Source of the DNA: an uncultured Candidatus Peribacteria bacterium
Lineage (GTDB): Bacteria > Patescibacteriota > Gracilibacteria > BD1-5 > JAGOOR01
Assembly (NCBI GenBank): GCA_964421335.1
Contig: CAYQWU010000002.1
Location: forward strand, 1-27,420
Direction of reading: 5' to 3'
Length of the DNA: 27,420 nucleotides
The notes beneath the pieces were generated by a model. The model was given only the letters and a program-made list of their open reading frames with translations. It did not search any database and was not told the DNA's origin. The translations under genes were made by a program, and so were the position numbers. The stretch's first letter is position 1, and each line of letters starts with the position of its first letter. Below, in pieces: positions 1,517 through 27,420 of the stretch.

Positions 1517-1522
1517 AAAATT

Positions 1523-1550: not shown

Positions 1551-1559
1551 AGATTTGTT

Positions 1560-2036: not shown

Positions 2037-2065
2037 AATTCACTATTAAAATTTATATACGAATT

Positions 2066-2092: not shown

Positions 2093-2098
2093 ATTAAT

Positions 2099-3643: not shown

Positions 3644-3664
3644 AAAAAAGAAAATTATGCTCAC

Positions 3665-3691
3665 ATTGTATCCTCTGAGAAAAGATGGCAA
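3665..3691 (-). promoter_or_regulatory. Promoter TTGCCA-N15-TACAAT for the 3D-domain gene
   Basis: Plus-strand tggcaa 3686-3691 and attgta 3665-3670 are separated by 15 nt, 21 nt upstream of the ATG. Confidence 0.55.
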
Positions 3692-3777
3692 CCCAAAAGT
3701 TATTGACATCAAAAACCTCGTCCAGGAGAGTCTTCTGGATAGCTTGCAAACTCTCCTCTCCTTCGTAGACTCATAAA

Positions 3778-5242: not shown

Positions 5243-5253
5243 AAAGAAAGGAT

Positions 5254-6081: not shown

Positions 6082-6156
6082 AAAGAGAGGGGATTCTCCC
6101 GAAAATTGTCCATAGACCAAGACTGTCGATTTTTCCAAAATATATACAATTGTGAC

Positions 6157-7122
6157 ATGAAAAAATTCCTCATCTTTTCACTTTTCACTTTTCACTTTTC
6201 ACTGATCGGGGCATTTGCCTTTACTCCTTCTGCTGACTTTGTCGCCTATGCGGACAAGCTCGGTGGTCAGATGGGCACGCTTTTTGCTCGTATGTCGCCT
6301 GAGGAGAAAACAAGCGTCATCACTAATCTGAATACCAGACTCGTACAACTCCAGAATAATCTCATCGGATTGAGTGATCCGAAGATGCTCAATCGTCTCT
6401 ACCTGATACAATATCTCGCGAGAAATATTCCTGGTCTTGAATCATTTGAACAAGAGGATGTCATCTATGATGAACTGACTTCGACCATATGGACTCATGC
6501 AAAAAATGGTTTTGATCTCCTCTATCAGCCATTTAATACACCGCGGTTTGAGTCACATGACAGTGCCAAAAAATACCGCGCACTCGTGAACGGTGGCTAT
6601 TTCAATAAAATCGACGGCTCCATCTATCATGCTGGACTTCTCGCTCTGGATGGACAGCGATATACTCCTCCTGTGTTTGATAATTCTCAGGTGACGCATT
6701 TCCTGTGTCAGGATAGTCACTGAATCCGTATCATGCCAAATGTCGACTACCACGAATCTCTCATAGATTCTTGCGATGTCCTCTTCCAGGCTGGGCCAGT
6801 TATCTATTCCAAAAGAGGAGATCTTATCGAAGAAGACTTGAGACCAGCCTCATATATAGGGAAAGCTCATAAGCGAACAGCCCTCGTTCTCTTCGAAAAA
6901 GCTGGCGTCCAGGATGTGTGGTTTCTGACTATCAATGAGGAAGAAACACTGACAGAGGTGAGGAATATAGTTCTCCGAGAAATGCGATTTATTGGTGCAT
7001 ACGATACGGTACAAATCCTCAATCTCGATGGCGGGAGCTCAGTTGCTCATGTGAATTACGCCCATCCGGAACTCAATATTGGCAGGACAAAGATTCTGCC
7101 TATAGTATTGGGTATTAAATAA
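6157..7122 (+). CDS. Secreted phosphodiester glycosidase-family (NAGPA-like) protein (321 aa)
   Basis: Track ORFs 6106-6723 and 6733-7122 fuse through TGA. Signal peptide MKKFLIFSLF..., then NGGYF, QAGP, RTAL and LNLDGGSS family motifs. Confidence 0.8.
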
Positions 7123-7131
7123 TTTTATTTT

Positions 7132-8097
7132 ATGTTATTGTCCAACTGGTCCGACGAAACCTCTCTGACAAAAAAATCCATCCGTGCTGGATGGGGTGAG
7201 GGAATTGTCCAACTCGCTCGTCGGAATTCAGATGTTGTCGTCCTCAATGCTGACCTCCCATGATCCCTCAAGCTTGAAGGATTTATCCATGAATTTCCAG
7301 AGCGGTATTTCCAGGTCGGTGTCGCAGAGCAGAATATGGCGGGTATCGCTACTGGTATGGCCCATGCAGGGAAGATTCCATTTATTACTTCATTTGCTGC
7401 GTTTAGTCCGGGACTGAATTTCAGCCAGATTCGACTTGCAGCGATGTCGCACCTCCCACTCAAGGTCGTCGGAAGTCACTATGGTCTCAATGTCGGTCCA
7501 GATGGTGCGAGCGCTCAGATGGAGAGCGATATTGCTATGATGCGTGCACTTCCTGGCGTACGCGTCTTGTCTCCTGCTGATTATAACCAAGCAATACAGA
7601 TGGTTGCTGCGATGGCAGATGGCGAAGGTGTCGACTATATCCGTGTGACGCGTGCTGATTTTCCAGTATTTCTCGATGACACACCGATAGAGATCGGCAA
7701 AGCTCAGAAACTTCTCGACGGGACGGATGTGACCATTATCGCGACTGGCTCCATGGTCTACGAAGCCCTTCAAGTCGCTCAATCATTTGTCGCGACAGGG
7801 AAGTCAGTTGATTTCCTCAATATTCACACGATAAAACCGCTCGATAGTGAGAGTATTATTACTTCAGCACAGAAGACTGGTAAGGTCGTCGTCATAGAAG
7901 AACACAATGTCCACTGAGGACTCGGAGATGCGGTCGCTTCCGCTCTTTCTGAGCACTGCCCAACTCGACTCTTGAAGATAGGAATTGCTGATATATTTGC
8001 TGAATCGGGGACACATCGTGAGCTCTGGATGAAGTATTGACTTGATAGGAAAGTCATGTTCCCAAAAATTGAAACCTGGATAAACCAAATTTGATAG
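7132..8097 (+). CDS. tkt: Transketolase, C-terminal (pyrimidine-binding plus C-domain) subunit (321 aa)
   Basis: ADL-x-GS, GVAEQNM, GPDGASAQ, TIKPLD, EEH...GGLG motifs. The gene ends TGA(Gly)-TAG at 8092-8097. Confidence 0.92.
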
Positions 8098-8140
8098 AGC
8101 ACTCTCTTGCATTTTATACTGTATCCTTATTATAAGATTT

Positions 8141-8641
8141 ATGCTTCGTACTATCGCCTACATCATATTTTTGTGCACAGGAATTTTTGCGTTTTTCCTT
8201 ATCGTCCTCTTTTTCCGCTCTCAAGATGGCGTAGTAAATACCTCTACAGATACACCTTCTCGACGCCCGATTATCAGTACCAGCGTCAATGATAAAGTCC
8301 TCTCAAAGGTAGAAAAAGCTTATGAATTCCGTAAATCGACTCAAGATGATATTTTTGGGGCATTTATATTTACCTTTCCAGTAGAGATTACCGTCGCAGA
8401 TCGCATCCGTATGTATGTATTTGAAAATGACTATGCCCTCATTCGTCGTAATCTCCTCCTCCTTTCCAATCTCTATGATTTCCAGGATACGACTGATTTC
8501 TTTGGTAAGACGATGTTTCTCAATGATAAAACTGGTGACGGGCAGATAGTGAGATTTATTACTGAAATTGAAGGACACGCTGTCGGCTTTGAAGTCCTCC
8601 GGGATGAGTATGGTGACCTCAAGAGTTTGCTTTTGCAATAA
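8141..8641 (+). CDS. Hypothetical protein with an N-terminal membrane anchor (166 aa)
   Basis: Clean ATG-to-TAA ORF with host-like codon use. TTGCAT-N15-TATTAT (8107-8133) ends 7 nt before the ATG. Confidence 0.75.
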   Translation: MLRTIAYIIFLCTGIFAFFLIVLFFRSQDGVVNTSTDTPSRRPIISTSVNDKVLSKVEKAYEFRKSTQDDIFGAFIFTFPVEITVADRIRMYVFENDYALIRRNLLLLSNLYDFQDTTDFFGKTMFLNDKTGDGQIVRFITEIEGHAVGFEVLRDEYGDLKSLLLQ

Positions 8642-8653
8642 TTTTTCTATACT
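8627..8653 (+). promoter_or_regulatory. Candidate greA promoter TTGCTT-N15-TATACT
   Basis: Hexamers at 8627-8632 and 8648-8653. A second TATAAT lies at 8659-8664. Confidence 0.4.
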
Positions 8654-8683
8654 TCCTCTATAATTACTCTCTATTTTTCCACT

Positions 8684-9166
8684 ATGGCAAAGAAATATCA
8701 GCTTACCAATGAAGGTCTCGAAAAGCTCCACCTCGAACTCGATGATCTGCGTAATGTAAAACGCGTCGAAATCGCTGAAAAGCTCAAGGTCGCTATCGGA
8801 TACTGAGATCTCTCAGAAAACTCTGAATATCAGTCAGCTCGAGATGAGCAGGCAGCTGTAGAGCTCCGTATCTCTGAGATCGAAGAAATCATGGAAAACT
8901 ATGAAATCCTCGATATGGATAAGAAGGCAAAGAAGAATAATGTGATCACTATCGGTAGCAAATTCACACTCAAGATGGGAACAGAGAAGAATTCTCCAGT
9001 TCAAGAATATATCATCGTCGGTAGTACAGAAGCTGATATCCTCGAGAATCGTATCTCAAATGAATCACCACTCGGACAGGCTGTCATGGGTAAGGCTGAA
9101 GGAGAAATGGCAGAAGGTGTTGCTCGTGCAGGGAAGTTTTCTTATAAAATCATGGAGATAGCCTAG
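8684..9166 (+). CDS. greA: Transcription elongation factor GreA (160 aa)
   Basis: LT-x-EG-x-EKL..., G(TGA)DLSENSEY-x-x-AR-x-EQ, IVGS-x-EAD...ISNESPLG-x-A. Confidence 0.95.
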
Positions 9167-9178
9167 TATACTATTTTT

Positions 9179-9589
9179 ATGAATTACTTTTTCGCTCAAC
9201 ATATCATCCTCATACCACTTGCTGCGTATATCGTTGCAACACTTTTGAAATGATTATTTTTGTGGAGGAAAAATCGATTCCATCTCCAGTCTATGCTCTC
9301 TACAGGAGGTATGCCGTCTGGGCACTCAGCGCTCGTCGCGAGTCTCGCAACGGCTATCGGTATCAAATACGGTCCATTGCATGATCTCTTCGTCCTCGCT
9401 CTCGTCTTCGCAGCTATCGTCATCTACGACGCGATGAATATCCGCTACCAATCAGGTCTTCACGCTCACGCACTCAATAAAATAAAAGGAGAAAAACAAC
9501 TCAATGAATCTCTCGGACACCTCCCATCAGAGACTCTCGTCGGTAGCATGATCGGTGTGTTGGTTGCGGCAGTTTTGATGCAGATTTAG
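9179..9589 (+). CDS. Divergent PAP2 family (DUF212/YuiD-like) membrane protein
   Basis: STGGMPSGHSA, IVIYDA and LNESLGH-x-P-x-E motifs. The start extends to ATG 9179 through a TGA. Confidence 0.9.
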
Positions 9590-10257
9590 AGTAATTTTAT
9601 TTTTGATTCTAATCCATCCCACTCGTCTGAAGTGGTCTTTCTTTTAAAAGGGTTTTCTATTCACAATTGCTCGGTTGTGTACCCAGCCTTTCCATAATTA
9701 CAACTTGCACAAGAAGTCACTAGATTTTCTGGTAGTGTTTTTCATCATAAATTCCAGGGAATTACATGGTCTGCAACGGGCCATGTCAGATGAATAATTC
9801 CGTGTGTGTCTAGATTTGTAGATCAACGCTTGAAAGAGTCAGAATTTATTTTCTTTGAAAAAATTTTCAGGAATTTTTGGGATATAATTCTGCTACCACA
9901 GTAACGACATCTGTATCAATCTCTTAGAAATACTTCTTTTTCATATTTCTTTGGCGAACGAAGGGTATCTCTTTTATCTATATCTATTATTTTTGGTGAC
10001 TGGATTTTGAGGATATTATTTCTGTGCCAGCCAGACATTTGCCCGTGCTCTATATACCATGTTTGAATCTCATTATTCCTTAATTTCTCTATTTTCTCTG
10101 TAGCAGATATTTTATCTCACTGAATAAAGTCGTTAAGAGCATCTATAAATATATCTATTTGCTCGTTCATCCATCCTGGTTGTCGCAGTGGACAGTATAA
10201 ATCCCATTTTGAACTATCTTTATCTAATGCTGAACAGCAATCTTTTCCTCTGCACAT
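9586..10257 (-). CDS. HNH endonuclease (223 aa), missed by the ORF track
   Basis: With TGA=Gly: ...VFLRDGYRCRYCG...VADHVIPWNLGGKTLPENLVTSCASCNYGK...EWDGL...*. Two CxxC pairs plus DH...N...N; six in-frame TGA codons. Confidence 0.9.
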
Positions 10258-10260
10258 AAT

Positions 10261-10893
10261 TTATTTTAATATCCCCTCAATCTCACCCCACACGGCTTCC
10301 CGAGGTTGTTCGCCGTTTATTGTGTAGTATTCGACTCCGTCGGCTTTCCAGCTCTCGAGGAGGGGGACTATGTCCGTGCGGTACCATGCGAATCGTTTGT
10401 GGATTTTCTCTACATCAGTGTCATCGACTCGTATCACGAGCTTATTGCCTGTTCCAGGATTGGTATCTCCTTCGAAATCACTTCCAAATATCTCTTTTGT
10501 GACGGGATCCATCTTGCGACCTTGGAGTCTTCGTAATGCCTCTTCTTCCGTCAGCGTGAGGTGTATGACGCAGTAATCAGTCGTGATAGCATCGAAAAAC
10601 TCTCTTTGAGCGATATTTCGGACTGCTCCGTCGATGAGGATGCGGTCGTCGGGGTGACTTTCGACGAATTCTTTTATCAGGTCAAAAATGACAGAATCGG
10701 GTGTCATGATACCATGAGGGACAGTATCTGCGACTGCTTGGTAGTGACGATGTGCGGTATTTTCGAGGACAGAGCGGAGTATAGCGCCTGTTTCGAGGCT
10801 GATATAGCCGTAGTTTTTGTTGATGAGAGCTGCTTGTGTGCCCTTACCAGAGCCCTGGATGCCCATGAGCATGATGTGTTTTTTTGTGGTCAT
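10261..10893 (-). CDS. adk: Adenylate kinase
   Basis: P-loop GIQGSGKGTQA, ETGAILR, LIDGAVRN and a LID region ending IRVDD. Confidence 0.92.
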   Translation of the reverse strand: MTTKKHIMLMGIQGSGKGTQAALINKNYGYISLETGAILRSVLENTAHRHYQAVADTVPHGIMTPDSVIFDLIKEFVESHPDDRILIDGAVRNIAQREFFDAITTDYCVIHLTLTEEEALRRLQGRKMDPVTKEIFGSDFEGDTNPGTGNKLVIRVDDTDVEKIHKRFAWYRTDIVPLLESWKADGVEYYTINGEQPREAVWGEIEGILK

Positions 10894-10916
10894 ATGCAGG
10901 GAAGTATAGCTGGCAA

Positions 10917-10944
10917 ATAAAAAATCAAAAATAAAAAATCAAAA
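10917..10944. repeat. 14-bp tandem direct repeat (ATAAAAAATCAAAA x2) in the divergent adk/rplU intergenic region
   Basis: Exact copies at 10917-10930 and 10931-10944. Confidence 0.6.
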
Positions 10945-10989
10945 AACCTCATCCAAATCATGTTTTCTGTACTTTTAGAGTATAAAAAC

Positions 10990-11016
10990 TTGCCAGATTA
11001 AAAAAATATATACAAT
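10990..11016 (+). promoter_or_regulatory. rplU promoter TTGCCA-N15-TACAAT
   Basis: Hexamers at 10990-10995 and 11011-11016, 21 nt upstream of the ATG. Confidence 0.6.
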
Positions 11017-11037
11017 ACAGCCATCTAATCCAATATT

Positions 11038-11346
11038 ATGATTGCAGTTATCGAAAAAGGATGGAAACAATACATCGACAAACAAGGTGATATCATCACA
11101 GTAGATAGACTCGATGAAGCCCTCGAATCACACACATTTACACCACTTCTCGTCGCAGATGAGGCTACAGGTACCAAGGTTGGTGCTCCTTTTCTCGATG
11201 GTGCAAAGGTAGAATGCAAAGTGACAGAACACACACGAGGTGACAAGGTTCGCGTCTTTAAAATGAAATCAAAGAAACATTACCACCGTACAGCTGGTTT
11301 CCGCGCTGCACAGACAAAGCTCGAGGTGACATCGATCAGCGCGTAG
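11038..11346 (+). CDS. rplU: 50S ribosomal protein L21
   Basis: MIAVIE-x-G-x-KQY...VGAPFL-x-GAKV...RG-x-KV-x-VFK-x-K-x-KK-x-Y-x-R-x-x-G-x-R. Confidence 0.95.
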   Translation: MIAVIEKGWKQYIDKQGDIITVDRLDEALESHTFTPLLVADEATGTKVGAPFLDGAKVECKVTEHTRGDKVRVFKMKSKKHYHRTAGFRAAQTKLEVTSISA

Positions 11347-11366
11347 TTTGTCTTTAATGCTTTTGC

Positions 11367-12353
11367 TTGCTTCCAAAATTTATATCCAAGTATCTTCGCG
11401 ACCGTCGTGCTCTTCGTCGAGCACGGATGAAGAGGGTGAGGACTTCTAATTCTCTCCTGATTCTCTCGCTCGTCGTTTTATTGCCCATTTATCCTGTATT
11501 TGGTGCTTTTATCTACGATGGTTCCAATCGTGGAGCTCTCGGCATAGATATCAATGAGACTTCGATTATCAATGAATATACTGATGTGACCGATGATGAC
11601 TTCATCGATCCGCAGGTTGTTCCTGTCGAAAATCAGCGATCTACTGTTGCAGAATACATAGTTCAGGGTGGGGATACTCTCGGAGAAGTAGCCGAACAGT
11701 TCGATATATCAGCGAACACTCTCCGCTGGGCAAATAATCTCTCGACGGATACACTTCGTGTCTGACAAAAGCTCATCGTGCCACCAGGAGATGGTATCAT
11801 GTATACGACCAAAAGAGGAGATACTCTCGATGCTATTGCCATCAAATTCAAGACCACCAGTGAGAAAATCCGTACAGCGAACCTCCTCGGAGATATGCTC
11901 CCTACTGGTATCACACTCTTCCTCCCAGATGCTCAGCGCCCCTCAATTGCCATCGATAATGCGCCTGCGACGAACGGGGCACCGAGTGCTCCATTTAGCC
12001 TCAAGATGATTAACCCAAAGGGTGCAGGATTTGTGCCTGGTCATTGTACCTATTTCGTGGCTCAATACTGGCCCGTGAAATGGCGATGAAATGCGAGAAA
12101 TTGGTATAAAAATGCTAATGCCGCAGGATATAAAACTGGTCAAGTGGCGAGACCTGGATCGATAGTCGTCTGGTATGGACCGGGGTACAATCTCACTTAC
12201 GGACATGTCGGAATAGTCCTTAGCGTAAATACAAAAGCTGGTACAATGGTCGTTAAAGATATGAATTATGCTGGACTCTGGAAAGTGACAACCCGTGTCG
12301 AGAAGATAAAAAACAAAAATATCGTAGGATTTATCTATAACGAGAAAAAATAA
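11367..12353 (+). CDS. Membrane-anchored 2xLysM plus CHAP peptidoglycan amidase/endopeptidase (328 aa)
   Basis: Track ORFs 11367-11765, 11778-12089 and 12144-12353 form one frame joined by TGA. LysM motifs Y-x-VQGGDTLGEVA and YTTKRGDTLDAIA; CHAP motifs GHCTYFVA, WRG(TGA)NA-x-x-W and YGHVGIV. The TTG start is inferred (alternative ATG at 11427). Confidence 0.88.
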
Positions 12354-12356
12354 ATC

Positions 12357-13502
12357 ATGCAAAATAAGTTTTCTACACGCCTGCGCCGTCAAAAACAGTT
12401 TCGTCAGAAAACTCTCAGTAATCTCGCATTTTTACTCGTATTGCTCGTCCCTATCTATCCAGTGTTTGGTTCCTATATGCAGAGCTATACTGGTGTCGTC
12501 GTCCGCGGTGAATATGATCGCTCTACCATCCTCGCTTCCTATGATTGGGAAACAGGGGAGAGTACTTCGGACTTCATAGAGGATCTCGTTCAGACACCAC
12601 CAGAGACCACGCTTATAGAGCCTGAACCGACACCTATTGCTGAGCCTGAAATCGATAAAGTACCTGAACCAACAGTTGATCCGAAGCGATGACTCTATGT
12701 GACGCATACGGTCGTTCGCGGAGATACTATCAGTACTATTGCACAGAAATATGGTATACCTATTGCGACTCTCCGTACCATGAATAACCTCAATACAGAT
12801 ATCCTCTCCATCAATCAAAAAATCACCATACCTCGTATCAATGGTGTCCAATATGCGATACAGAAGGGGGATACGCTCAGCACTATTGCTCAGAAATATG
12901 GTATCGCTGATATCAATACTATCCTCGTCGCAAACGATATGAGTCGTAAGTCTACGCTGAGTGTCGGGAAAAAACTTCTCCTCCCAAATCCAACAAAAGA
13001 TCCAACGAAAAAACCTGTCACACAAGTCGCAAAAGCTCCAGCTCCAGCAGCAAAAAAAGCTCCAACGAATAATACTGAGAAAAAAGCTCCAGCTCCAGCT
13101 CCAGCTCCAAGACCGGCAGCTCGCGATCAGCAAGTGATCACTTATGGGGATTATTCTCTTTCACTGAAATTGAATAAATGATGTCGTAATTTTGTCTGGG
13201 GAAACTGTACTTGTTTCGTTGCAAAATATAAAAATGTCACATGGCGTGGTAATGCCAAAGACTGGCTCAGAAATGCGAAAAAACAATGAAAACCAACGGG
13301 AAGCGATCCGAGACCTGGTGCTATCATCGTCTACCATGGTCCAGGATTTCCGCCTGCGTATGGGCATGTGGGCATAGTTATGGCCGTCAATGAAGATCAC
13401 ATGATTATCAAGGATATGAACTATAAAGCACTCAATGAAGTGACCACTCGAAGAGAGACTTTCAACAATCCAGCTATCATAGGATATATTTATGTAGATT
13501 AG
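12357..13502 (+). CDS. Second membrane-anchored 2xLysM plus CHAP hydrolase with a Pro/Ala/Lys linker (381 aa)
   Basis: Single frame through TGA codons. LysM motifs HTVVRGDTISTIAQKYG and YAIQKGDTLSTIAQKYG; CHAP motifs GNCTCFVA, WRGNAKDW and YGHVGIV; TAG at 13500-13502. Confidence 0.9.
13086..13109 (+). repeat. Coding hexamer repeat (GCTCCA)x4 encoding an Ala-Pro linker
   Basis: gctccagctccagctccagctcca, with a shorter copy near 13035-13046. Confidence 0.8.
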
Positions 13503-13585
13503 AGCATTTTTGCAAGTGAGAAGAGGGGATAATCCTTTTATTCTAGAGATAAAATCAGTACAATAACGGGAAATATTACACCTTC

Positions 13586-16500
13586 GTGATTCCTTTCCAA
13601 AAGATCATTGCATGGTTTCTGATTGGCCTCCTTTCTTTTGAGGCTATTTTTCGTATTCCCTTCGTTGTTTCTGACGCTTCTGCACTCGAATCTCAGGACC
13701 ACGAGGATATTGTTTCCCTTCTCGTCGAAGAGGAGCTTTTCCGGAAAATGTCCTCTGACATCGATGCCTATGCTCGTCGTATACAAGCGAAGCTCCCACA
13801 CACGAGAACGACTATCCTCACATTTGCGAAAGATGCTCATCCATATCTCATCGCTTCTGCGAATGAGCGACTCTATTTCTCTGGACTTCCAGAACATGGT
13901 AAAAAAACTCAGAAACTTGTAGGAACTATTCTCATCTGACATGTACCCCTTCCTGTTGTTCATAAGAATTCCACAGATTTCCTCTCACTCTTTCCCTACA
14001 CAGATTTTGATGAACCTCATTTTTTCTGGAATTGGGAAACTTCTCGGTATGAGTACCTCGCCCAGAAGCAAGAAGATCCGCGACCTGATATCTGGCATTC
14101 AGTCATTGATCCAAATACGGGGAATGTCGATACTGATGTTCAGAAAATTCGTGATTTTTTTACTCGCGTGTACGAATACGATGACAAAAAATGACGCTAT
14201 CAAAATATCTGAGTAGACCCACAAGTCCTCTATATGGATAGTGTGAATGAGTCCCGTGCAGCGAGTAAATGACTCCTTTCTGTCTACGAACAGTTTTTCA
14301 TCCCCAATCAGGAGCACCTCGTCTATAACAGATTTTCTCGTGAATTTGCTCAGTACCTCTATACAGGATTCCTCTCACTCATGAAATCTGAATGAAATAT
14401 TCGGATACCTGCTTTTCGAGATTGGAAGCCAGAAGTAAATTCATGAGCATCATTTCTCAATCAAGCCAGCGACATCACTACCAAAGTTTTCAGTGACGGG
14501 CTTATCACACCTTTCATCAAAGTCATCAACGAAAAATATATCGAAGATGTCAGTCGGTGGGTACACAATACTGGTCGGTACTACAACGGCTCATCCGATG
14601 TGAGAGTTGATACTATCCCTGAACTCGTCACTACCAAAGATGCACTCTCTACTCAGGTGATCAAGGAGGGGAACGATGCTCTCGAGAAACTCATAGATGC
14701 TTATGTTGATACAACTTTGTCTCTCGATATCCCTATCCTCGTTAGTCGTCCTTTTCAGAAAACTATCACAGAAACAGAAGGGAGGAGAAGACAGACACGG
14801 ACTTATAATTTTGTTTATGATAATTATATTTATGGTGCCAAGGCAAATACTATTAAGACTGCCGCTGATTGTAGTCTCATTCGTGGTTCGACATTCGGAT
14901 GACTCAATACAACAGTTGAAACGAATCACTGATATAACATGCTCGCGGGTGAAAATGATGGGAAAATCATAGCTCGTGATACTGATGCTGGGATATTATG
15001 TCCTAATCCTACACTCTCATACTGGGGAGGGAATAGTTCTCTCAATTCGACATATCGTACTGGTGAGATGACGCTTGATTCTTCTCGGTCCGATGACTTT
15101 ACTCTTCCCGTTCTCGATCTCGCTGCCGGGAAGAAAACAACGGGAACCAATTCACCTCTCGACTGTCTCAAGACAGATCTCATACTACGACCGTATCAAC
15201 ACGAAGGCCTCCGGAAATATAATTGGCCTGTCGAAACAAATGGAAACAGATATTCATGTGCCACTCCGCTTCAGAGACCAACACCGAATCCTATCAATAT
15301 CGATCCGACTCCTGAGAGAAATGAAAATATTCTCGCAAATCTCGTGAGATGTTCTACGAATAATGGAGATATGACTCTCCTCGATCGTGATGGGAAAAAT
15401 CTCGGTCTCTGTCAGACCAACTGACTCACAGGAACCTATAAGAGAATACCATCTCTCATCAAACATAGCGATCCTACTACGAGTGTTTTTGGAAAACAAC
15501 TCCAGTGAAGCTCGACACCAAATCTCCCAATTGATGAAGAACGGTACCTCCTCTATCTCGATCGGACTGGTTCTCAGGCGCGCGTGAATTATCCTAATCT
15601 GTATGATATCGTCGTTGATCCTACTGATTCAGACGAGGTTATTATCTGAAAAATTCGTGCAGCACTTGCTCCTGCACAGTCTCGACTTACCGCACCGATT
15701 ATTCTCCCAGCTTCACACAAATGGTCTCAGCTCGTGCCATCAGGTGCTATGAATTCTGTCAATATCGCTGACATACTACTCGCAAATGCTGACATAAAAA
15801 ATGGTCTCATAGAGGCACTCCGCTGGAAACATCTCGATATCGAGACAAAATATATCTCTGTTTTTGAGAGAGCTCTCGCGCCAACTGTTGCCAACAAAAA
15901 TTTCATCTTGCCAGATAAAAAAGATCTCTATGAAATCAGTTATCTCTGAGGTCAGGGCGATGCGAGGAATTTCGTATTTTGATTTGCTCCAGAGAAAAAA
16001 AATGCTCTCCCAGAATGGTTCACAAATATTGAAGCCGTGCATGGTGATGGCTCAGATATTCCTTCTTTTTCAGATGATACGACCTCATCTCCGTACATGC
16101 TCTCTCCTCGAGAGATCAGCAGACTTCTCTGAGAACCGGGTTCTGAGGATCCTACTTCCGAGGAGGATACAACACAGCCAGAACAATCAGATTCTGGTTC
16201 TAAACCGAAACTCGATTGTCAGCTCCTCTCGACTGTTATTGTCTGGGAATGGCTTGCTCAGATTCTTTGCTGGCTTCAGTGAGTTACAGATATCAAATCA
16301 AAAACTTTCACGGCAGATACTTCTGACTTTCCTCCATTCCCTTTTTCTACTGGTGGAGGTCTCGGTTGATTTTCTGGATTATTACAACAGCTCAAGAGCT
16401 TCCTCCAGTCTGATACGAATAAAAACAATGTTCAGGATTATGTTGAGAAGAATAAAAATTCACTCGCCCTCAATACTGCTTCTGCTCGTACGATGAAGCC

Positions 16501-19500
16501 ACGAGAGACTCTCCGTATCGACACCACTCTCGATGAGAATAATTACCGTCTCGATGACGACTCCACGAACATCCGTCTCGAGATTATTCGTATAGATGAC
16601 CTCGATGAGAAGAAGAGTTATACTGCTCGTGATACTGATTGGGCCGAAATACAAAAACGATATTTTCGAGTTTCTGGGTCTGATTCATTGATTGATGGTC
16701 ACGCTTCATGGTCGTTCACATCAGAGAATAATAATCGTGCGCGCATTACTTTTGTTTCTCGTATTTATGCTGATGGTGGTGTCCTCATGAGTTCGGAGGA
16801 GAGTTCAGTGTTGATAGGCCCTATAGCTCTCGGTGTCACCGTTATTGGTACTTCCGGAACGAATACCTCACACACTATCACCGCTGGCGATACACGGGGT
16901 CTCGAGGCAATCCTCTCTGGACTTGATACCTATCCGAGCACGGTTGATATTTCTATTCAGGATTATGTGACAGGCGAACAAAAATGAACATATCGAGCTG
17001 TTCCAGTTTCAAACAATCAGATTCGTCTCGGTAGTCCTGCGATTGATTCTGTATTGAAAAAATCAGGGAGATATACCATCACTATTCTCGCAGGAGATTA
17101 TTCTGGTCAGACACATTTTATCGTCTCTCCAGATAAACCACAGACCATCAATATTTCTCTGTCGACCTTACTCATCCGGGACACTTCAGGACAGATAACT
17201 CTCTCACTCCAGGATACATGGTGAAATACTATCGACCTCAAAGACTGGAACATGGAGATAAAGACTTCCACAAAAGTAAAAATATCACCATTATCGAGTC
17301 AGCCGAATACAGTTTTTTCTGGTAAGGCTGTCAGCTCTCTCACTGTCACCCCTCTCGAGGCAGGGAATACAACTTTTGATGTGACCCTGACACAATGAAC
17401 TCAAAAAATAACTACCACTCTCTCTCGCCCCGTGCTCTCTGATGCCCGACTCGTGGTCGAGATTCCTCGGGGAAATCCTATAGAAGTAGGACAGGAGATT
17501 CCTGTTAATTTCACGATACAGCGTCTGGATGGAACTCCCGTTGATACCTGGGATATGCCTATAAAAATTGGTCTCCGTGGAGGTGACGCAACTCTCTCTC
17601 CAGAATCTCTCATTTTCAAAAACGGGAGAGCGACGGCGAGTATCAAAACTGGTACAAAACCAGCAACAGTTTCTCTCTATATGAAAGAGACGGGTCTCGG
17701 AAAAATAGTTGGTGAGAGCTTTGAAATCCTCTCAGGTACTCCTGCTCGTATCTCCCTCACGAGTCCAGAAACTCTCTTTGCTCGAACTGGTGCGAGAGGT
17801 GTTCTCACGACTCGTGTCTATGATACATATGGTAATCTGACAACACTTCATGGACATACCCTGGTCGCCACTGCAGACAAGACTCAGCTCATACAACCAC
17901 TCGTATCTCCGCGTGCAATAAGTACTGGGATATATGAGATGGATATCACGAGTCTCGGGAATCCTGGACGGATACTCTTCCGAGCTTGGCTCGAAAAAGA
18001 TGGCAAAAAATCTCCCATCACACTCCTGGAAAATGTCTCTGAAACAAATGCACTTCCTGTTATCACGAGTGAAGAAGCATCTCAAAATCGTTGGCAAAAT
18101 CTCACGCAAGTCTTGCTCGGAGCACCATTCTGACAGACGCCTGTTCAGTGATATTTTGGATGATCGACACTCTTCGCACCACAGACAAAAACTCTCGCAC
18201 TCACGACACTTCTCGACACTTCTGATAAGCCAATCGTCACGGTTATGCCAACTGGTAATATATCAACTGGCTCTATCCAGTATGGTACTGGTATCAAAGT
18301 ACAAGTCGAATCATATAAAAATAATGCGCTTACTCTCTGAATATCTGATGCACGCCTCTGAGTTATCGCTCGCATTCGATACCCAGCTATGTCTGATGTT
18401 TCCCTCACGCCTTGTGGCGATGCTTGTGCAGGAGACACTATGACTTTCACTCCAGCGGGGTCTGATATTTATTACAAAGAGGGAAGTGTGTACCGAAATA
18501 CTGAGAAACTTTTCTCACTCACAGAGATATTTACTTTGCCAAATCTTTCATTTGTTTTTGTTCAAAAAAATACTCAAAGCCTCCAATTCTCAGTGCTCCT
18601 CAACGGCGTAAATCTCGGCATCCTCTCGCTCACCTGGAAGCCACGAGTTCCACGAGAATGAGGAGTAGATAGCACTGATACGATTATTGTAGAACCACTT
18701 CTCTCTACCCTCCTCACCAAGCTCGCCTGGTCTCATACAAGCTCTCATGAAGCACCATGAATGGTTGTCTATTCTGCCTGAGCACCGACTACTTATCTCG
18801 GATGAGCTCATAATCAGTGATGGTCTACTTATCCAGAGCAGGGGGGTCTCGGTTGGACACAGAATAACACTACTCTTCTCCAATTCGCATCATGATCAGC
18901 ATGGTCAGAATCTATCGAAAATCATGCAGATTATCTCACCATCAATCTCGGAGATCCTATCATGAAACTCCCAAACTATGCTGTGAATTCTGTCACAGGA
19001 TTTGATAAAACTCTCGGCGAGCCGGTGTATATCTGAGGTACTGATGTGAGTGATTTTACTTTCCGCGATACAAATAGTGATACCAAGAAAGATCTCGTAG
19101 TGTACCATGATAATGGCACTATATGAATGGGGCTCTCACGGACTGATGGCTCGATGCTCGATGTAGGAGATCTGCTCTCAGTTCGAGGTGCACAGAAGGG
19201 CATGATACGATCCGGAGATTTCATCGGAGATGGGTATGCTGATGTCGTGTTTGTGGATGATGCGGGACAGCTCCATCATATAACTCACGATGCCAATGGT
19301 CCGACAGAAAAACCTCTGCAATATGACAAGACTCCCATTCTCTGAAAAATAGAACAGCTCGAAGTATTTGATATGGATCATGATGGTATTGATGATATCG
19401 TCGTCATGGATCATCTCGGAAGTTTGTTTATCTTCTATGGTCATAATTCTGGAATATTCCGAGTACAGCTCCTCGATAATGTGTACGATTTTGTTCTTTC

Positions 19501-22500
19501 TGATCAGGCGAAATCCTCATACTTCACGGGAGCTATCAGCTATAATGGTCCAGGGTTTGTGGATCCAGATACTATGCCGCGAGCATCTACATTTGAGCTC
19601 CGCACAAAACAAGAACAAGCAAATAACCTCCTCTTTACTCAGATACAGATGCCCTCTACTCAGCCTGCTACTCTCGCTCCCCCAGAGAGTTTGGGTACGA
19701 CTGTCGTTGATAGTTTTGCAGGGAATTCTACCAATAGTCTCTCAGGACTTCCAAATGGTCTGCTCAGGATGTATGATGGCAATGCTACCAATCTCGCCAA
19801 TTCACTCCGATTCGGTTATGATGCATTTGAATCAGACAATGATAGTATAGTTTCTGTCACCGCCGAAACAGGTCAACAGTATGATACGGTTAACCTCCTG
19901 AAGGCACCATTTATCATACCTACATCACTCTCAGTGATGAAACAGTACAAATCTCTGGAGGCTTCTGGTCAAGTCCTCTCAGGATCACCAATAGAAGTCA
20001 AAATAACGCTCAAAAATACTTCATCACAAAATATCAGCAACATCCTCCTGCTCGAAAAATTTGCGGATTATATAGATATTTCTGAGTTGCAGTATGATCT
20101 CGTTCGTCGTGAGAAAAAAGAAACACGGAAATTTATCACTGATAGCAATGAGAATCATTCAGGTATAGCAGATCTGAGAAATGTTTCCATCTCACCAGGG
20201 GAGACTATCACTCTCGTTTATACGGGGACTCTCAAATCATTCTCTTTTGGGAAATTTGATGTTGGCTATCTCGAAGATACACAAGATCCTACTTCCACTC
20301 AGGCAATATCAAAATCAGAAATACGCAGTATCAATACGACAGCTTCCGAGAAAGAATCACTCCCAGAAAGTGAATTCTATAATCATGATAGCTATGGAGA
20401 TATACGATTCAATCCCAATGAAACATGTGGAGGTCCTATCCTCCTCTGGCGTTCACACAATACCTATGATCGTACCTATCATGAGGCCCTCATAAAGCGT
20501 GAAATAGCGGACCCTGTGGCAAATGCTGTCCGATTGAGTAGTGATCCGACAAGTCAAAATCCTGCAACATCAGGCGCGCCTCGTCCAGCTCAACAATTGA
20601 CTGAATCTCAGTTGGCTGACAAATCTCAAGCTCAACTCTCATCATGGCAAAAGGACAGCGATGGTGATTCTATTCCAGATAAGGATGATAATGATTATGG
20701 TGATGTATTTCAGATGGTGATGCAGAATAATATACCTCAGATACTCTCGAGTCTCTGAAAAATCGATGGAGTCGCAGGTGGTATCACAGGTGGTTTAGAT
20801 AAAATACTCTCAAGTCTCGGCTCTGGTTTCGGTAATGCTATTTCACAGCCAATTAACTGGTCACCGAATATGCCGGGTAATACTATCTCTGCTCTGGGCT
20901 ATGCTGTTCCGTGAGCAAATACTCCTCCGAAAGCCTGTCATAAAGATGTTCGTTGTTGAGATCCTGTTATCTCATATCCGACTGGTGCAAAGCGTCGTTG
21001 AGCAGGAGGTCTTCGTGATTTCCTCTGAGGCTGACCAACTGTTACGGGGGGGAGTGGTCTCAACGATGCTCCTGACAGTACTGGATCAGTGAAGCCTCTC
21101 GCAGCAGGAGAATATACCCCTGGTTTGGGTATCTCAAAGTTCCGAGTATTTCTCGATACGACCCTCACAGGAGCTATGACGCAGCTTGTTTGTTTTGGTC
21201 CCAATAATGCTATCCCAAATAAGCCATGAATGTTTCCTCTCCGATTTGATGGTAACTGTATCTATGCAATTCTCGATCAGTTGTCTCAACTTCTCAAAGA
21301 TGATGGCAGTGAGGATAAGCCTCTCGAGAATGAAACAGATGTTTCTGACACTTTACCTCCTGAAGAAGAGAAGCGTGATAATCCAGAAAGGAAAGACCGA
21401 GCAGTGTTTTCTAATGCGAGCTCTTGTTCGTCATTTGATCCGATAGACTCCTATCCGACAGACCTGTCACAGGCGGCGGCCGCTTATTTTTCTCAGAGAA
21501 ATGATGAAAATACGACTGCACTTCTCACACAAATTGCCGAAAATCCGCAGGTAGTCGATGGTTCTTCATCGAGTGATTCAGCTCTCGAGCTCCTCTCGAA
21601 ATACGGTGACGATATACTCAAGATAGCTCTCAATCCTGATGTGATGAATTTCCTGGGATGAATCACAAATCCTGAATCTATCAATCTCCAGAGCGTCAAA
21701 GGTTTCCCTAATTTTATCATGGATTGGTATCAGAGGCAGATGGATGAGATTATGGCGAGTCTGACACAATTTCCTGATCTCAAGCTCGCCCTTCCTGACT
21801 TTGCAGGAGCACACATAGATACATGAGCTATACCTGGTCTCGAATCAGGTCTCCAGCAGGGTGTTGCTTCTGCTCTTCCTAGTGTGCAACCATCTTCATT
21901 TTTGAGTAGCTTCCTCCCGACAGCAGACGCTCTTTCTCTGCAATCATTATTTAATCGAGGAGAAGAAGATTCTCTGTATAAAATTACAGGAGTACCTCAG
22001 ACAGCTTTTGAGAGATTCCCTATAACGGTTAATCCAAAGATGAAGCGTGTTGATGCAAATATTCCCTATGCTAACGGTCCAGATATAAAGAAGAAACTTA
22101 TAGAATATCAGAAGGCACTTGAGGCTCCACAGAGCGCTGCGAATCAATCACGATTACGACAAAATATCGAACGACTCAAAGAGTATCAAGAATTGCCAGA
22201 GAGGCTCCAAGAGGCTTATTATGAAAAAGAAAAACATCTCTATGGTCTTTCAAAAAATGTGAAATCAACACAAGAATTCATGGGGGATTGGATGGAGGAT
22301 AACGGTCCAAAATTTAACAATTGGTCTGAATCGTTTGTTCTCAACAAGAAGATGCTTGGATCGTGGCAATGACTCATCGATGTCTTTAACGACTACGAAG
22401 CAGAGTGTGGAGTCAATCGTAATGAGCGATGGAACCTCCAACACTGGATGTCTGCTGTCATCCCAGAGATTATCCCCAATATGCCTATTATGGAATTACC

Positions 22501-25500
22501 GAGATTTAACGATGTTAAATTGGATAATTCCAATATTGATCCTACTATAGATGCTGAAATACCAGAATATAATCTCACATTTCAACCTGTGTCTCTCCCT
22601 GATGCTCCGATAGGTACCTCCGCAGGACCGATGGCATTGATTCCAGAAATTCCAAGTCTCTCAACAGGCATAGCCCCTCCATCGGTGGATATCCCCCAGC
22701 TTGCTGATTTGCCTCCTGCTCCGAAAATGCCATCACTCTCTCCAGCTCTCAAGCCAGCTCTCGGAATATTTAATGCGACAACGAAATTTCAGTGCCTCTA
22801 CCGTAAGGTTCCTCTCGCTCCTGAGTGGGTAGCATGAACGAAGGTTGCTCACAAAACTGAGAGAAAGTGATATCTCCCTTTTGATTTCCTTGACAGGGAT
22901 AAATGATACAAGGAGGATTATAAAAATCCTAAAAGATTCTTGCCTGATCTGAGTACGATAGATGCTATTGCCAATCGTAGCGTAGGTGATTCGGAGATAT
23001 CGTTTGATAACATAGAGGAGTCTCTGGGTAATCTCGAGGAAGCACTACAGATAGAGTTTGCGTCTACAGAATCTGATACACCAGCTACACCTCCAGAGAA
23101 TCGTCCGGATAATCAGAAAGATATACCTCAAAACAATTCCGATACTCTCGAAGAATCTATCGTACAAATCCCAGCTATGATTCGCGAGCTTATCGCTGCG
23201 ACACAAAATCCACAGCTCGTCACGCCACAGGAGGGGCTTGCTCAATTTTCTGACTTGATTCGGGATATGGATATGAGACCAGAACGACGGGCTCAATTTG
23301 ATCAACTCCTGGATACGACCCAACTATCAGCCCCTACTTTCGCTCCCGTTCTGGCTCAGATGAACGAGAGATTTGACCAGATAGACACAGCTATACAGTT
23401 GGATAGGGAAGAAAATAATCGACTCATCCAGGATATCATCGCGTGGGGCAATAATTCAAAAACACTGGAAGAGATACCATCACTTGCGGGAAAAATATCT
23501 GGAAAAGCCCACCTCGCACAAAGCGCAAATAAGAGTTATCTCGCATCACTCGATCCCAGCATTTTGAATCCTCTTTCTTCTGTAGTGGCACCATCCATAC
23601 AGAGCCTTTCTCCTCTTCTCTCTGTCACCACTACAGCTCCTGTTCCTGCCCCTTCAGATGTGACGACATTTGCGACTATGGTAGACGAACAAGGACTGAG
23701 AAAAGCTCAATGACTCTATGTGACATATGGTACTACTACTCAGAAAGTCATAGATCTGGACGAAGGTATCAATGGTAACAATAAGCTCCACACTGTGGAT
23801 GACGACAGAGACGGAGACCTGGATCTCTACTACTCAATCTGAAACATCATTTATAGGAAAGAAAATCATTCGAACACGCCAATATCCTACACTATCAAAG
23901 ATGCTCCAAAGGTCTACACAACGACAGATATATATCGTGATTTTTTCAATATAAAAACTCCCAACCTCGCCCTCATACCTCGAGATGGGCAGATACATAT
24001 TCGCCAGAATAATTCTCCTGCGAGTGTCCGATATCAGACACTTATGAAACAGGGGAATGAGCATCTTCGCCTCAGCCTCTTCCGCTCTCTCTTTGAAACC
24101 AACTCCGAAAAAGCTCGCTATCAAGTCGACATACTTCCTCAGACAAAGAATGATCCAGCAATGCCTGTCTCGAGTGTGCCCTATATAGCTGATATCGATT
24201 GAACTGTTTTCATAGAACATAATAAGATCTACCGTACCCTCCTCACCAGAGGTAAATATATCGATGAAAATGGTGCTTCACAAGACCTCTCACCTGATTT
24301 TATCATCCGTGGCGGACAGTCAGGATATACGACTGAATCCACTACTCTCGATGTCACGACGAAAGGGAAAACTGCTTCATATAAGATGACTACTGGGCAG
24401 AGAGTTAGATTTGCGAGTGATAGTAGTGTCACTGTACAGAGATGATCACTCATACTCTTTGGTACGACTGCTGAGAAAAGACCTCTCAGTGTCAGAGATA
24501 CACGACTCCCTCTCCTCCCAACAGATCGTCTCATTACTGATAAAAATGGCAGCGTCACAATCGTTTTCCCTGATGGTCAAAAAACTCTTGTGGGGTCTTC
24601 TCAATATTGGTCACTTAGTGAATACGCTCCAGGTGTTGGTGTGAAAAAACTCTCACTTCCTGTCGAATCCGAATGGTACTATGGTACTCTGACTGATTCC
24701 CGCAGTTTGATAGAAACGGGATTCCCTCGTGGCACAGTATTTGATGCGTATGCAGAATTTTCGCAGGGAAGTATCATGGCTCAGATTCCATCTCAGATAA
24801 AGCTTTCTCTTCCGAGTCCGACGGAGATTGATTTCCAATCATATTTCCCAGCAGACACGCTGACCAATGTAGAGATATTCCGTCTCCCGTCATCTCAGTA
24901 TAGGAGGGTTTCTCCTACTCGTATAGCATTTGAAACACAGAAGGATAGTACTGAAATACTTGTCCGAGTCACCATCGCATGACGGGTCAGAGACTATACG
25001 ACGAGAATTGTCACAGATCCACCAAAACTCGGCATCAATGCTCTCGATAAAAATGGAAAAGTCTCTGGAGCAACCATCTCTGTATCTCCAATTCTACCTC
25101 TCTGAATCCAGACATACATCGATAATCAGAACTGGACACTCGCTCGATGATTTGGGAGCAATGATGATGCTTTCTCTACTTCTGTCGTGCGCACAGCTCC
25201 CCTCATATCTCTCAATTATGGTGCAGATCCTTTGACGACATTTAAGAGAGAATCTGGTACACCAACTCTCTGAGGTACTCTCTCTGCTGTTCCTCTTATT
25301 TCACTCGGTAAATCTTTTGCTTATTCGATACGACTCAGTGGTGTTGAGAGACTTCAGGTGAGATATGATTTCCCAGAGACTACTTACCGCCAAGTAGCAA
25401 CTCTCGAAGAGGTGAAAAATCCGGGAATATATGTCATAGGTTCAGGTCTGCGACTTGAGCCATCAGCTATTCGCGATTCACTCAAATGAGTATATATTAC

Positions 25501-25690
25501 AGATACTTCCTACAGGCCGATGATTACGCTGGATTCTCGTGGCATCATCCGTACTCTCGACACCAATATTACATGGACGCTGAATATGGATAATAATCGT
25601 GTGAGCTTCATACTCTCTCGCGATAGAGTCGAGCTCGGTAGAATAGTGATAAATGGTGAGACTATTACGAGTCTGGAGACTCAGTATTAG
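13586..25690 (+). CDS. Giant secreted or surface protein (about 4,034 aa) with FG-GAP/VCBS motifs, Ig-like and DUF11-like domains and Pro-rich and helical regions
   Basis: All plausible plus-strand track fragments from 13586 to 24982 lie in one frame. A hand read of that frame found no TAA or TAG until 25688-25690, only about 55 TGA(Gly). Signal peptide 13586-13684; DTNSDTKKD, GDFIGDGYAD and DMDHDGIDD (19067-19400); DSDGDSIPDKDD (20654); DDDRDGDLDLYY (23798). Confidence 0.9.
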
Positions 25691-27420
25691 ATGAGTTTTT
25701 CTCCTATTTCCTTTTTTGTGTCTATCATCTTGCCACCTATATCGAGCCATACATGATAGTCTCAAGGGGCATATCATTCGAGGAGTGTCTTTATCTCGAG
25801 GAGTGTTTCTCGTGGTGTTTTATCCGAGAGCTTGAGAGTGATTATCTTATCCTCTATTACACAGGTATATGCCTTTTGTAGTTCTAGAAATAAGAGCGAT
25901 TCTTCTGTTTCCTTATCGCCAAAAATTCCTTCATTCCGAGCCGCTGTTCGGAGGTCAGATATTGTCGACCTTTTTACCTGGTCTGCCTCGATAGATATCT
26001 CCCGCATTTCTACTTTGCAATTCAGTTTCCCTTTCACGAGGATGATTTCCCCTGTATTGATATGACGAGCTATTTGATCGTACATCTTCGGGAAGACTAT
26101 GACGGTGAATTTCCAGCCTGTACTCGAACAAGTCGCGATAAGCATATTGTCGCCTTTTTTTGTTTGAATTTTTTTGACCGTATCGACATAGCCTATGACT
26201 TGCACTATGGGTTTTTCTTTCTTTTCTTTTTTTACTTCTTCTTCCGGTGTGTCATCTACTTCTTTCTCTTCTACGATGACCTCACCTCCATCACTGACCT
26301 CATCCGCTACCATCACTTCCTCTGTGATACTTTCTTCGAGGAGAGAGAGGAATTCTCATACCTTATCGAGACCGAGGGATTTCCTCTCTATGTATCGCTT
26401 GAGTCCATCGAGCGGATCTCCCGAGATACTCATGCCAATAGCATTTCTCTCTTCGCGGATTTTTTCTTCAAAGGACAATGGGGCGCCTGATTCGAGTATG
26501 AGACCACTTCCGGTCATGCCTTCTCCGAGATCAAACATGTCCATCTGTTTCGTACTTGTTTTGTGTTCTATTTCTCTGAGATATCCTGCCATCCTCTCCA
26601 TATTTGCGAGCATATGACCCCGTTCTCAGAGAGTGTCCATGGCACCACTCTTGATGAGAGCATCGAGTGTTTTTTTGTTGATGACATCTGATCCTGTTTT
26701 CTGTACGAGGTCTTCGAGTGTCGTATAATTCCCTCATTCTCGTCCACTCAATATCGTACCAATCGGTCCATCACCGACTCCTTTTATAGCTTTGAGCCCG
26801 AAACGGATTTTCGTCTTATCAATATAGGTAAAGTGCCTCCTTGATTCGTTTACATCAGGGACGAGTACCTGGATTCATTTTGAGCGAGCTTCATTTATCT
26901 CGAGAACGATTCGGTCGCTGTCATCCTCATCTGAGACCATGAGTGCTGTTAGGAATTCTGTTGGATAGTACGCCTTCAGATACGCAGTCTGATACGCAAT
27001 CATCGAATAACAGGCTGCGTGAGATTTGTTGAAACCATATCCAGCAAAGGGTTCGATGATATCAGTGAATATGTAGGTTGCGAGTTTTTCTGAGTGTCAG
27101 ATTTTCATCGCTGCCTCTATGAATTTGCCTTTCTGCTCGTCCATGAGTTCTTTAATTTTCTTACCCATCGCTCGTCGGAGTATGTCAGCTTCACCGAGAG
27201 AGAATCCAGCAAATGCCTGAACGAGCTGCATGATTTGTTCTTGGTAGACGGCTATACCCTGAGTCAGTTGGAGGATTTGTGCGAGAGATTCGTGCGGGTA
27301 TTTCACTTTTTCTTTTCCGTGTTTTCTCTTGATGTAGGTCGGGATGTAGAGCATCGGACCTGGTCGGTAGAGTGACACCATGACGATGATATCTTCAAAT
27401 GTATTGGGCACCAGCTCCTG
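25687..27420 (-). CDS. dnaE: DNA polymerase III alpha subunit, C-terminal 577 aa (5'-truncated by window edge)
   Basis: SLYRPGP, GIAVYQEQIM, GEADILRRAMGKK, FAGYGFNKSHA-x-x-Y, IRFGLKAIKG-x-G, E-x-x-x-IG-x-x-ISGDPL and an OB-fold, in one frame through TGA codons to TAA at 25689-25687. Confidence 0.97.

Follow-up and report, generated by a model that had tools for sequence, protein, structure and literature searches.

A 12.1-kb gene with TGA read as glycine in a wastewater Gracilibacteria bacterium encodes a member of a class-wide family of giant proteins with a predicted envelope role

The stretch of DNA analysed here (27,420 nucleotides, hereafter the window; contig CAYQWU010000002.1 of GenBank assembly GCA_964421335.1, positions 1 to 27,420 of the forward strand) holds a giant gene at 13586..25690 of the plus strand, which forms a single open frame of 4,034 codons on translation with table 25. 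The gene is intact and maintained by selection as a single unit, and it belongs to a wastewater and activated-sludge bacterium of 'Candidatus Gracilibacteria' in which TGA encodes glycine. Its product, hereafter the window protein, is a member of a colinear, single-copy family of 3,200-5,900-residue proteins distributed across most of the class. Judging from its domain content and modelled folds, this protein is probably an exported envelope fibre or adhesin with a structural or adhesive role. The gene takes up 44% of the window. Of the 0.79-Mb assembly, in which it is present in one copy, it accounts for 1.5%.

The existence of this gene had been predicted from the nucleotide sequence alone as a hidden 12.1-kb frame of about 4,034 residues filling 44% of the window, and the table 25 translation bears this out. 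When the same interval was translated with table 11, it fell into about 20 short open reading frames (ORFs) of 100-460 residues. A codon count inside the gene gave no TAA and a single TAG, which is the terminator, showing that no in-frame stop had been overlooked. For the housekeeping genes that neighbour it, full-length Pfam matches (transaldolase, the N- and C-terminal halves of transketolase and the C-terminus of DnaE) were obtained only with TGA read-through. We then compared the 55 TGA sites of the giant gene with the corresponding codons of eight orthologues in other genomes, which were GGN in 112 cases, TGA in 42 and TGG in 1. As a control, the TGG sites of the gene corresponded to TGG in 119 cases and GGN in 3. 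Since orthologues carry GGN at the TGA sites and TGG at the TGG sites, TGA is read as glycine and not as tryptophan, and code 25 operates in the giant gene. The number of TGA codons varies nearly ten-fold between orthologues of similar length (loci L012-L018), from 25 in L018 to 233 in L014.

The sequence was detected (70-93% of sampled words) in metagenomes of wastewater, sludge and freshwater, at least 20 in number and drawn from 11 studies. Logan contigs of four runs from four studies were aligned to positions 12300-27300. One contig of 18.3 kb covers this region entirely, and the three other runs tile it with pieces of up to 5.7 kb. Across the giant gene, the four runs showed neither insertions or deletions nor any joint; these independent contigs are colinear with the assembly and lend no support to a misassembly. 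Among the 38 best-supported strain variants in the gene, 32 were synonymous and 6 non-synonymous, and 33 of the 38 fell on codon position 3 of the giant frame. This distribution indicates purifying selection along the whole frame. Tandem Repeats Finder detected no tandem repeat with a score above 46 in the gene, in agreement with the predicted lack of repeats at the DNA level.

A word-indexed search retrieved full-length homologues of 4,001-4,300 residues at 72-51% identity, together with a 4,889-residue protein at 29%; within the family as a whole, identity over the entire length ranges from 72% to about 21%. A related-locus search with the single sequence returned three close contigs of metagenome-assembled genomes. 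An exhaustive phmmer search with residues 2300-3460 yielded 393 representative clusters, 219 of them at E <=1e-10. The 54 proteins that were retrieved at full length measure 3,197-5,860 residues, and the query matched all of them at a comparable relative position. Furthermore, phmmer searches with residues 30-830 and 2390-3130 both matched each of the 54 full-length representatives, in the same order along the protein. Conservation among distant relatives peaks at residues 50-800, 1750-1950, 2400-2550 together with 2700-2750, and above all 2850-3100. Whether homologues are encoded as several separate genes was examined in nine orthologous loci cut out from related genomes. Eight are single ORFs of 3,811-4,381 residues containing 25-233 TGA codons, and the orthologue in G014 alone is split into overlapping frames of 2,900 and 1,395 residues. 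The split orthologue lies in a complete genome of the same genus (L010, G014:C1:825500-844500; minus strand, with the 1,395-residue frame at 2683-6867 and the 2,900-residue frame at 6548-15247). The split may stem from an error in sequencing, from a frameshift or from genuine decay of the gene.

The C-terminal half of the protein matched all 41 genomes of the order, which comprise 3 families and 18 genera. A profile of the best-conserved core (residues 2855-3105) matched 107 of 151 genomes of the class, representing 87 of 113 genera; elsewhere in the phylum, 284 sampled genomes gave no match. The gene is an ancient class-wide orthologue and no investment peculiar to one lineage, a point that the original prediction had missed. 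In orders that use the standard code, the core was located in open frames of 3,000-7,874 residues without internal stops. Two of these, of 7,874 and 6,555 residues in the class relatives G343:C6 and G366:C1, are almost twice the length of the window protein. Profile searches gave no core match, or nearly none, in three families of the class, namely f99 (0 of 12 genomes), f142 (0 of 8) and f4 (3 of 15). The genomes of f99 and f142, and those of f4 with its three weak matches, are more than 90% complete, and lineage-specific loss or extreme divergence may be responsible.

Family members are already present in public sources as uncharacterised proteins, under the names "hypothetical protein" or "uncharacterized repeat protein (TIGR01451 family)", and we found no paper describing the family, its class-wide orthology or its domains. 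Database translations of several close homologues, and many rows of the family alignments, show W at columns where the window has TGA and other members show Gly; at alignment column G118, for example, 31 sequences have G and 15 have W, the latter from public translations at a TGA=Gly column. The W residues are attributable to gene calling under table 4 or one like it. Because TGA ends an ORF or becomes tryptophan in the hands of gene callers, the family is largely hidden in public protein sets. Its public sequences contain systematic errors at TGA sites, and many entries are fragments or carry W for G. The closest counterparts of the window protein are the unnamed giant exported proteins of Gracilibacteria, Absconditabacteria and Peregrinibacteria, which share its length class and its order of parts: signal sequence, N-terminal module, predicted Ig-like run, FG-GAP, predicted DUF11 domain, C-terminal core and tail. 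SLH or TSP3_bac repeats are present in several of the longer standard-code members, but not in the window protein.

Features of the protein and its surroundings are collected in Table 1; the domain map originally read by eye largely holds. Its only hydrophobic segment lies at the N-terminus, and all orthologues start with a similar one. This indicates export through the Sec pathway, with either a cleaved signal peptide, as originally predicted, or an uncleaved signal anchor. When the whole protein was searched against PDB sequences, NCBIfam, PHROG and Pfam, only FG-GAP_3 was matched (residues 1878-1940; 28.5 bits with the whole protein and 32.2 bits with the segment, against a cut-off of 26.9). 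Neither the profiles A1 and A2, run against PDB sequences, nor feature searches of the ESM Atlas with residues 30-1000 and 3131-4034 gave a usable match. The Ig-like and DUF11 domains were placed on the window protein through alignment with relatives, 23 of which were scanned. In the middle region of these relatives, FG-GAP_3 was matched in 21, Invasin_D3 in 11, the Ig-like GH2_C5 in 10, Big_1 in 8, DUF11 in 6, SLH in 5 and TSP3_bac in 4, and in their tails SLH was matched in 7 and TSP3_bac in 6. The FG-GAP/VCBS interval read by eye at 19067-19400 was confirmed, both by the match above the cut-off and by family matches over an almost identical interval. An Ig-like run had been expected at about 16500-18050. 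The window protein itself gave no match to Big_1 or Invasin_D3 (PF02369, PF09134) or to any other Ig-like Pfam family, but 8 to 11 of the 23 relatives are matched at the aligned residues 1186-1471, inside that interval. Likewise, the predicted DUF11-like domain has no match in the window protein (DUF11/TIGR01451, PF01345), but is matched in 6 of the 23 relatives, one of them aligned to residues 2129-2165 within the expected stretch. The acidic motif DSDGDSIPD and the further DxDGD motif were both found as described, the latter as DDDRDGD. The conserved Cys-flanked helix that follows an acidic Ser-rich linker stays under the transmembrane threshold in hydropathy.

The N-terminal module gave the best-modelled part of the protein. 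An AlphaFold2 model of residues 30-830, based on a 46-sequence alignment, reached a pLDDT of 83 and a pTM of 0.79. When this model was compared with 48,161 chains by VIA, a search that does not depend on Foldseek, the gingipains RgpB and Kgp (Z of 7.9 and 7.8) and PorU (Z of 7.4) appeared at ranks 1, 2 and 4, followed by caspases at Z 5.5-5.9. Among AFDB clusters, residues 1-215 of the model matched, at E 3e-6 to 1e-4, entries named "gingipain domain" and "peptidase family C25", and a shape search of the ESM Atlas also led to C25 clusters. Foldseek gave no match for the model in the PDB (E >=0.1). Taken together, these comparisons argue with moderate strength that the first ~300 residues adopt a clan-CD-like alpha/beta fold. 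What had been described as an unknown Cys/Asn/Thr-containing region is instead a conserved 800-residue module that opens with this predicted gingipain-like fold.

The domain is nevertheless not a canonical C25 peptidase, because Pfam Peptidase_C25 (PF01364) was not matched and the catalytic cysteine is missing. Specifically, residues 1-428 of the window protein contain no cysteine, and among 46 family members no column of alignment positions 1-340 has Cys in 5 or more sequences. PF01364 found no match in the protein, in the genome, or in the giant-gene loci of 300 genomes of the phylum. RgpB, Kgp and the sortase-like PorU (MEROPS C25, clan CD; PDB 4ief, 4rbm, 6za2) thus resemble the window protein in having a caspase-like fold within the first ~300 mature residues, but differ from it in sequence model and in the catalytic Cys, since the domain is cysteine-free throughout the giant family and an Asp, D218, ends the strand of the presumed nucleophile site. 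They differ also in setting, as the window protein belongs to a monoderm bacterium of the candidate phyla radiation with no type IX secretion system context. The conserved motifs of the domain are LIG[DNH]xPLPVV, PYTDF, (E/D)IWH(G/S) and VFYxDxxRE, and the conserved polar positions comprise G118-[D/N/H]119, D140 (PYTD140F), W170-H171-(G/S), D218 with E222 (VFYxD strand), R331, D352 and E367. H171 of (E/D)IWH(G/S) is kept in 43 of 46 sequences. We predict that H171 takes the place of the histidine and D218 that of the cysteine of the clan-CD dyad, in which case the domain would be a pseudo-protease or an enzyme with different chemistry.

Table 1. Coordinates of the giant gene, its predicted parts and the adjoining genes
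Feature	Residues	Coordinates	Strand	Basis or remark
Two tandem LysM-CHAP hydrolase genes, directly upstream		11367..13502	+	Adjacency kept only within the genus
Whole giant gene	1-4034	13586..25690	+	GTG start, TAG stop, 55 TGA=Gly; 444 kDa, isoelectric point 5.0
Signal peptide or signal anchor (predicted)	4-29	13586..13684	+	Sole hydrophobic segment, then ASA-L site
Conserved N-terminal module	30-830	13673..16075	+	Common to 54 of 54 full-length members
Gingipain/caspase-like alpha/beta domain (predicted)	about 35-335	13688..14590	+	Fold searches, column counts
Conserved Cys-flanked hydrophobic helix (C878...C895)		16217..16285	+	Alignment consensus, hydropathy; after acidic Ser-rich linker
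Three Ig-like domains (predicted)	1186-1471	17141..17998	+	Invasin_D3, Big_1 and GH2_C5 matches in aligned homologues
Conserved GIGW...NLGDP block, leads into propeller		18842..18958	+	Alignment
FG-GAP/VCBS Ca-binding repeats (beta-propeller blades)	1828-1950	19067..19435	+	Pfam and mapped relatives
DUF11-like domain (predicted)		19940..20240	+	At 19970-20080 by alignment with a homologue's DUF11 match
TSP3-like acidic Ca-binding motif DSDGDSIPDKDDND	2357	20654..20695	+	Read in sequence; TSP3_bac in relatives
C-terminal conserved region	2390-3130	20753..22975	+	Gly/Cys-rich part, then core
Best-conserved core	2855-3105	22148..22900	+	35-40% identity across families
Second FG-GAP-like DxDxDGD Ca motif DDDRDGD	3405	23798..23824	+	Nearly invariant in family
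Poorly conserved C-terminal region	about 3440-4034	23903..25687	+	No family, SLH or anchor detected
dnaE, 3' part, convergent		25687..27411	-	Stop codon overlaps stop of giant gene

From this arrangement we propose the following picture, in which each step rests on domain content and modelled folds. The protein would be exported by Sec via its N-terminal signal sequence and would remain at the cell envelope, where it would form a long fibre of several domains. Its head would be the gingipain-fold domain without the cysteine nucleophile, probably serving binding or assembly, followed in order by an Ig-like stalk, a Ca-binding FG-GAP propeller, the DUF11 domain and the acidic Ca motifs. The distal parts would be the lineage-specific helical and Pro-rich core and then the variable C-terminal region. 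Because relatives in standard-code orders carry SLH, the family is expected to be fixed at the cell wall; the window protein, which has no SLH, would need another attachment, such as a signal anchor that escapes cleavage, or partner proteins. The SLH of relatives, the extracellular-type modules and the invariant Cys residues, which are consistent with disulfides, together point to an envelope location. The most likely role would be a surface layer or fibres by which host-dependent cells contact other cells. The role of adhesin or attack-apparatus scaffold suggested in the original prediction is compatible with these domains.

Several known systems resemble this picture in part. Giant Ig-like/FG-GAP surface adhesins (invasin/intimin-type Big_1 arrays, integrin-alpha-like propellers and DUF11 repeat proteins) have in common with the window protein the predicted signal peptide, the predicted Ig-like stalk, the Ca-binding FG-GAP blades and the predicted DUF11 domain, and SLH-anchored S-layer-associated proteins have the wall anchors that also occur in its relatives. 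However, adhesin-type modules make up less than a quarter of the window protein, its N-terminal module and C-terminal core are absent from those adhesin families, it shows no repeat expansion, and it is a conserved single-copy orthologue rather than a variable accessory gene. The largest protein of the Absconditabacterium Vampirococcus lugosii is a hypothetical protein of 4,163 residues, and giant membrane proteins of this organism were proposed to form a fibrous surface and mediate host attachment (PMC8080830).

A number of observations weigh against an envelope fibre or adhesin. Pfam, NCBIfam, PHROG and PDB sequences leave more than 90% of the window protein unmatched, and the Z values of 7.4-7.9 for the gingipain fold fall within the range that VIA itself terms "middling". 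Apart from its N-terminus, no part of the window protein could be recognised as an anchor to wall or membrane. In line with the prediction on this point, Pfam detected neither SLH nor an autotransporter or two-partner secretion (TPS) domain, the sequence has no LPxTG motif, with VPQTA at residue 2803 as the only similar site, and there is no second hydrophobic segment at the C-terminus or elsewhere. VAMP_16_20 (4,163 residues) is probably the counterpart in V. lugosii, as judged by size and lineage alone. No RNA run was listed as containing the giant gene. Finally, a near-universal single copy with unconserved neighbourhoods fits a housekeeping component of the envelope at least equally well.

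The last point leads to the strongest alternative, which we regard as a good deal less probable than the fibre or adhesin, though well ahead of the others. The protein would be a housekeeping scaffold of the envelope, such as an S-layer-like lattice or a cell-shape or wall-spanning element, which serves the integrity of its own cell and does not bind hosts directly. Its single copy, its near-universal occurrence across the order and most of the class, its full-length colinearity, the SLH of its relatives and the mostly synonymous strain variation would all be expected of such a scaffold. The gene neighbourhood agrees as well. In seven genomes of two other families there is no synteny, and the giant gene is flanked by SerRS, GDH, Der, RsgA, ABC-F, HsdM, GroEL and other genes. 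As these flanking genes are unrelated housekeeping genes, an "attachment and wall-breach locus" exists at the genus level at most. The neighbourhood comparison proposed in the original prediction thus recovered a link to LysM-CHAP genes within the genus, which is absent from those seven genomes. On the other hand, the three class families with no detectable core, or nearly none, suggest that the protein is dispensable for some lineages, and modules of the Ig-like, FG-GAP and DUF11 kinds typify surface proteins that bind ligands. Its mass of 444 kDa also far exceeds that of known S-layer subunits.

A second alternative assigns the central role to the C-terminal core, which would insert into or perforate the envelope of the prey as a host-membrane-active feeding device, with the rest of the protein as a delivery stalk. 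The helical and Pro-rich segments noted at first are indeed present, but their status as the best-conserved part of the protein had been missed. The C-terminal conserved region contains five invariant cysteines (2536, 2558, 2614, 2941 and 3070). Its core is composed of a beta-hairpin and a long helical bundle, followed by a CxxCxNER-type motif, a stretch rich in Pro (LPxLP...PPAPK) between two amphipathic helices, and a PEW motif. A model of residues 2390-3130 built from 54 sequences was confident for residues 2814-3094 alone, with pLDDT of 70-95 in the core, and shows a beta-hairpin, long helices that span ~110 residues, a short sheet and a pair of helices around the Pro-rich stretch. In the libraries searched, the modelled core matches no known fold. 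Foldseek gave no convincing match in the PDB (E >=2.9), VIA gave generic helical bundles at Z <=5.1, and AFDB clusters gave one uncharacterised protein (E 2e-6, TM 0.23) with noise in the remaining rows.

A transmembrane hairpin formed by the two helices that bracket the Pro-rich stretch was considered and rejected, as their Kyte-Doolittle maxima are 0.78 and 0.55 in the window protein. In the family, the medians are 1.36 and 1.51, with conserved lysines inside the helices. To judge from hydropathy, these helices are amphipathic and not transmembrane in the window protein.

The conservation of the core would suit a feeding device, as would the amphipathic helices, which reach transmembrane-like hydropathy in 11 and 20 of the 54 members. 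The best VIA rows (MLKL, SPECT, IpaB, and TcdA/TcdB at residues around 790-840) are membrane-perforating helical bundles, and predatory feeding is documented in Absconditabacteria (PMC8080830). These rows, however, lie well within the noise range for helical models, the helices of the window protein itself have low hydropathy, Foldseek returned nothing from the PDB, and no toxin or pore-forming family was matched. We consider a feeding device of this kind improbable.

Lower still we place the possibility of a secreted giant protease or other hydrolase with its catalytic centre in the gingipain-like domain. It draws on the fold likeness to RgpB, Kgp, PorU and the C25 clusters, and on nearly invariant polar residues at strand ends (H171, D218, E222, D140, R331, D352 and E367). 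LysM-CHAP hydrolases, moreover, adjoin the giant gene within the genus. Against a catalytic role stand the missing cysteine in the window protein and in the family alignment and the failure of the Peptidase_C25 model here and in the 300 phylum genomes, to which is added the variable residue at the end of the strand that closes with LIG (D, N, H, S or E). Finally, the two overlapping frames in G014 and the many short database fragments might raise the suspicion of an artefact, be it a frame open by chance, a pseudogene or several genes joined in a chimeric assembly. The fragments, however, are accounted for by contig ends and by gene calls that end at TGA, and the codon evidence, the colinear contigs from independent studies, the purifying selection in the giant frame and the full-length standard-code orthologues without internal stops refute an artefact as far as sequence data go.

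Genomes of the genus share one gene order, in which a small gene is followed by two LysM-CHAP hydrolase genes, the giant gene and convergent dnaE. The two hydrolase genes of the window are LysM-LysM-CHAP paralogues (11367-12353 and 12357-13502, plus strand), with an identity of ~35% between the two and of 50-61% to the corresponding genes in two genomes of the same genus. No terminator-like site was found between the second of them and the giant gene. At its other end, the TAG of the giant gene overlaps the dnaE stop at 25687-25690, with no intergenic space or terminator between them. Elsewhere in the window, an exported NAGPA-like phosphodiester glycosidase gene lies between the two transketolase half-genes (5254-8097), and an HNH endonuclease gene is located at 9586-10257 on the minus strand. 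A scan of the window for tRNA and Rfam families found none. In a distant standard-code relative (L022, the JGI contig with P0116), a type IV pilin-like (N_methyl) gene at 1025-1555 precedes the giant gene directly, and five unannotated genes follow it on the same strand.

Beyond the family members already in public sources, the new elements of this work are the cysteine-less gingipain-like N-terminal domain, the profile-based distribution over class and phylum, the mapping of Ig-like, FG-GAP and DUF11 domains, the read-level integrity of the gene with its purifying selection, and the rejection of a transmembrane hairpin in the window protein. A bolder version of the proposed fibre is a long shot at present: in the Gracilibacteria class, the family would provide the characteristic machine for host contact and feeding. 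Here a gingipain-derived head would carry a conserved His/Asp/Glu site in place of the Cys nucleophile, with a new binding or hydrolytic activity, a long Ca-stiffened stalk would follow, and a new helical, amphipathic core would engage or breach the prey membrane. The membrane-active module and the re-tooled hydrolase have weak support among its parts. The N-terminal module, with its confident 800-residue model, and the 250-residue core are discrete fragments, which eases experimental access. Bacteria with genomes of ~1 Mb, which have given up most biosynthesis, nevertheless devote 1.2-1.5% of their DNA to the giant gene. This share of DNA, together with the class-wide colinearity, suggests that its function is probably central to the build or attachment of these epibiotic or predatory cells.

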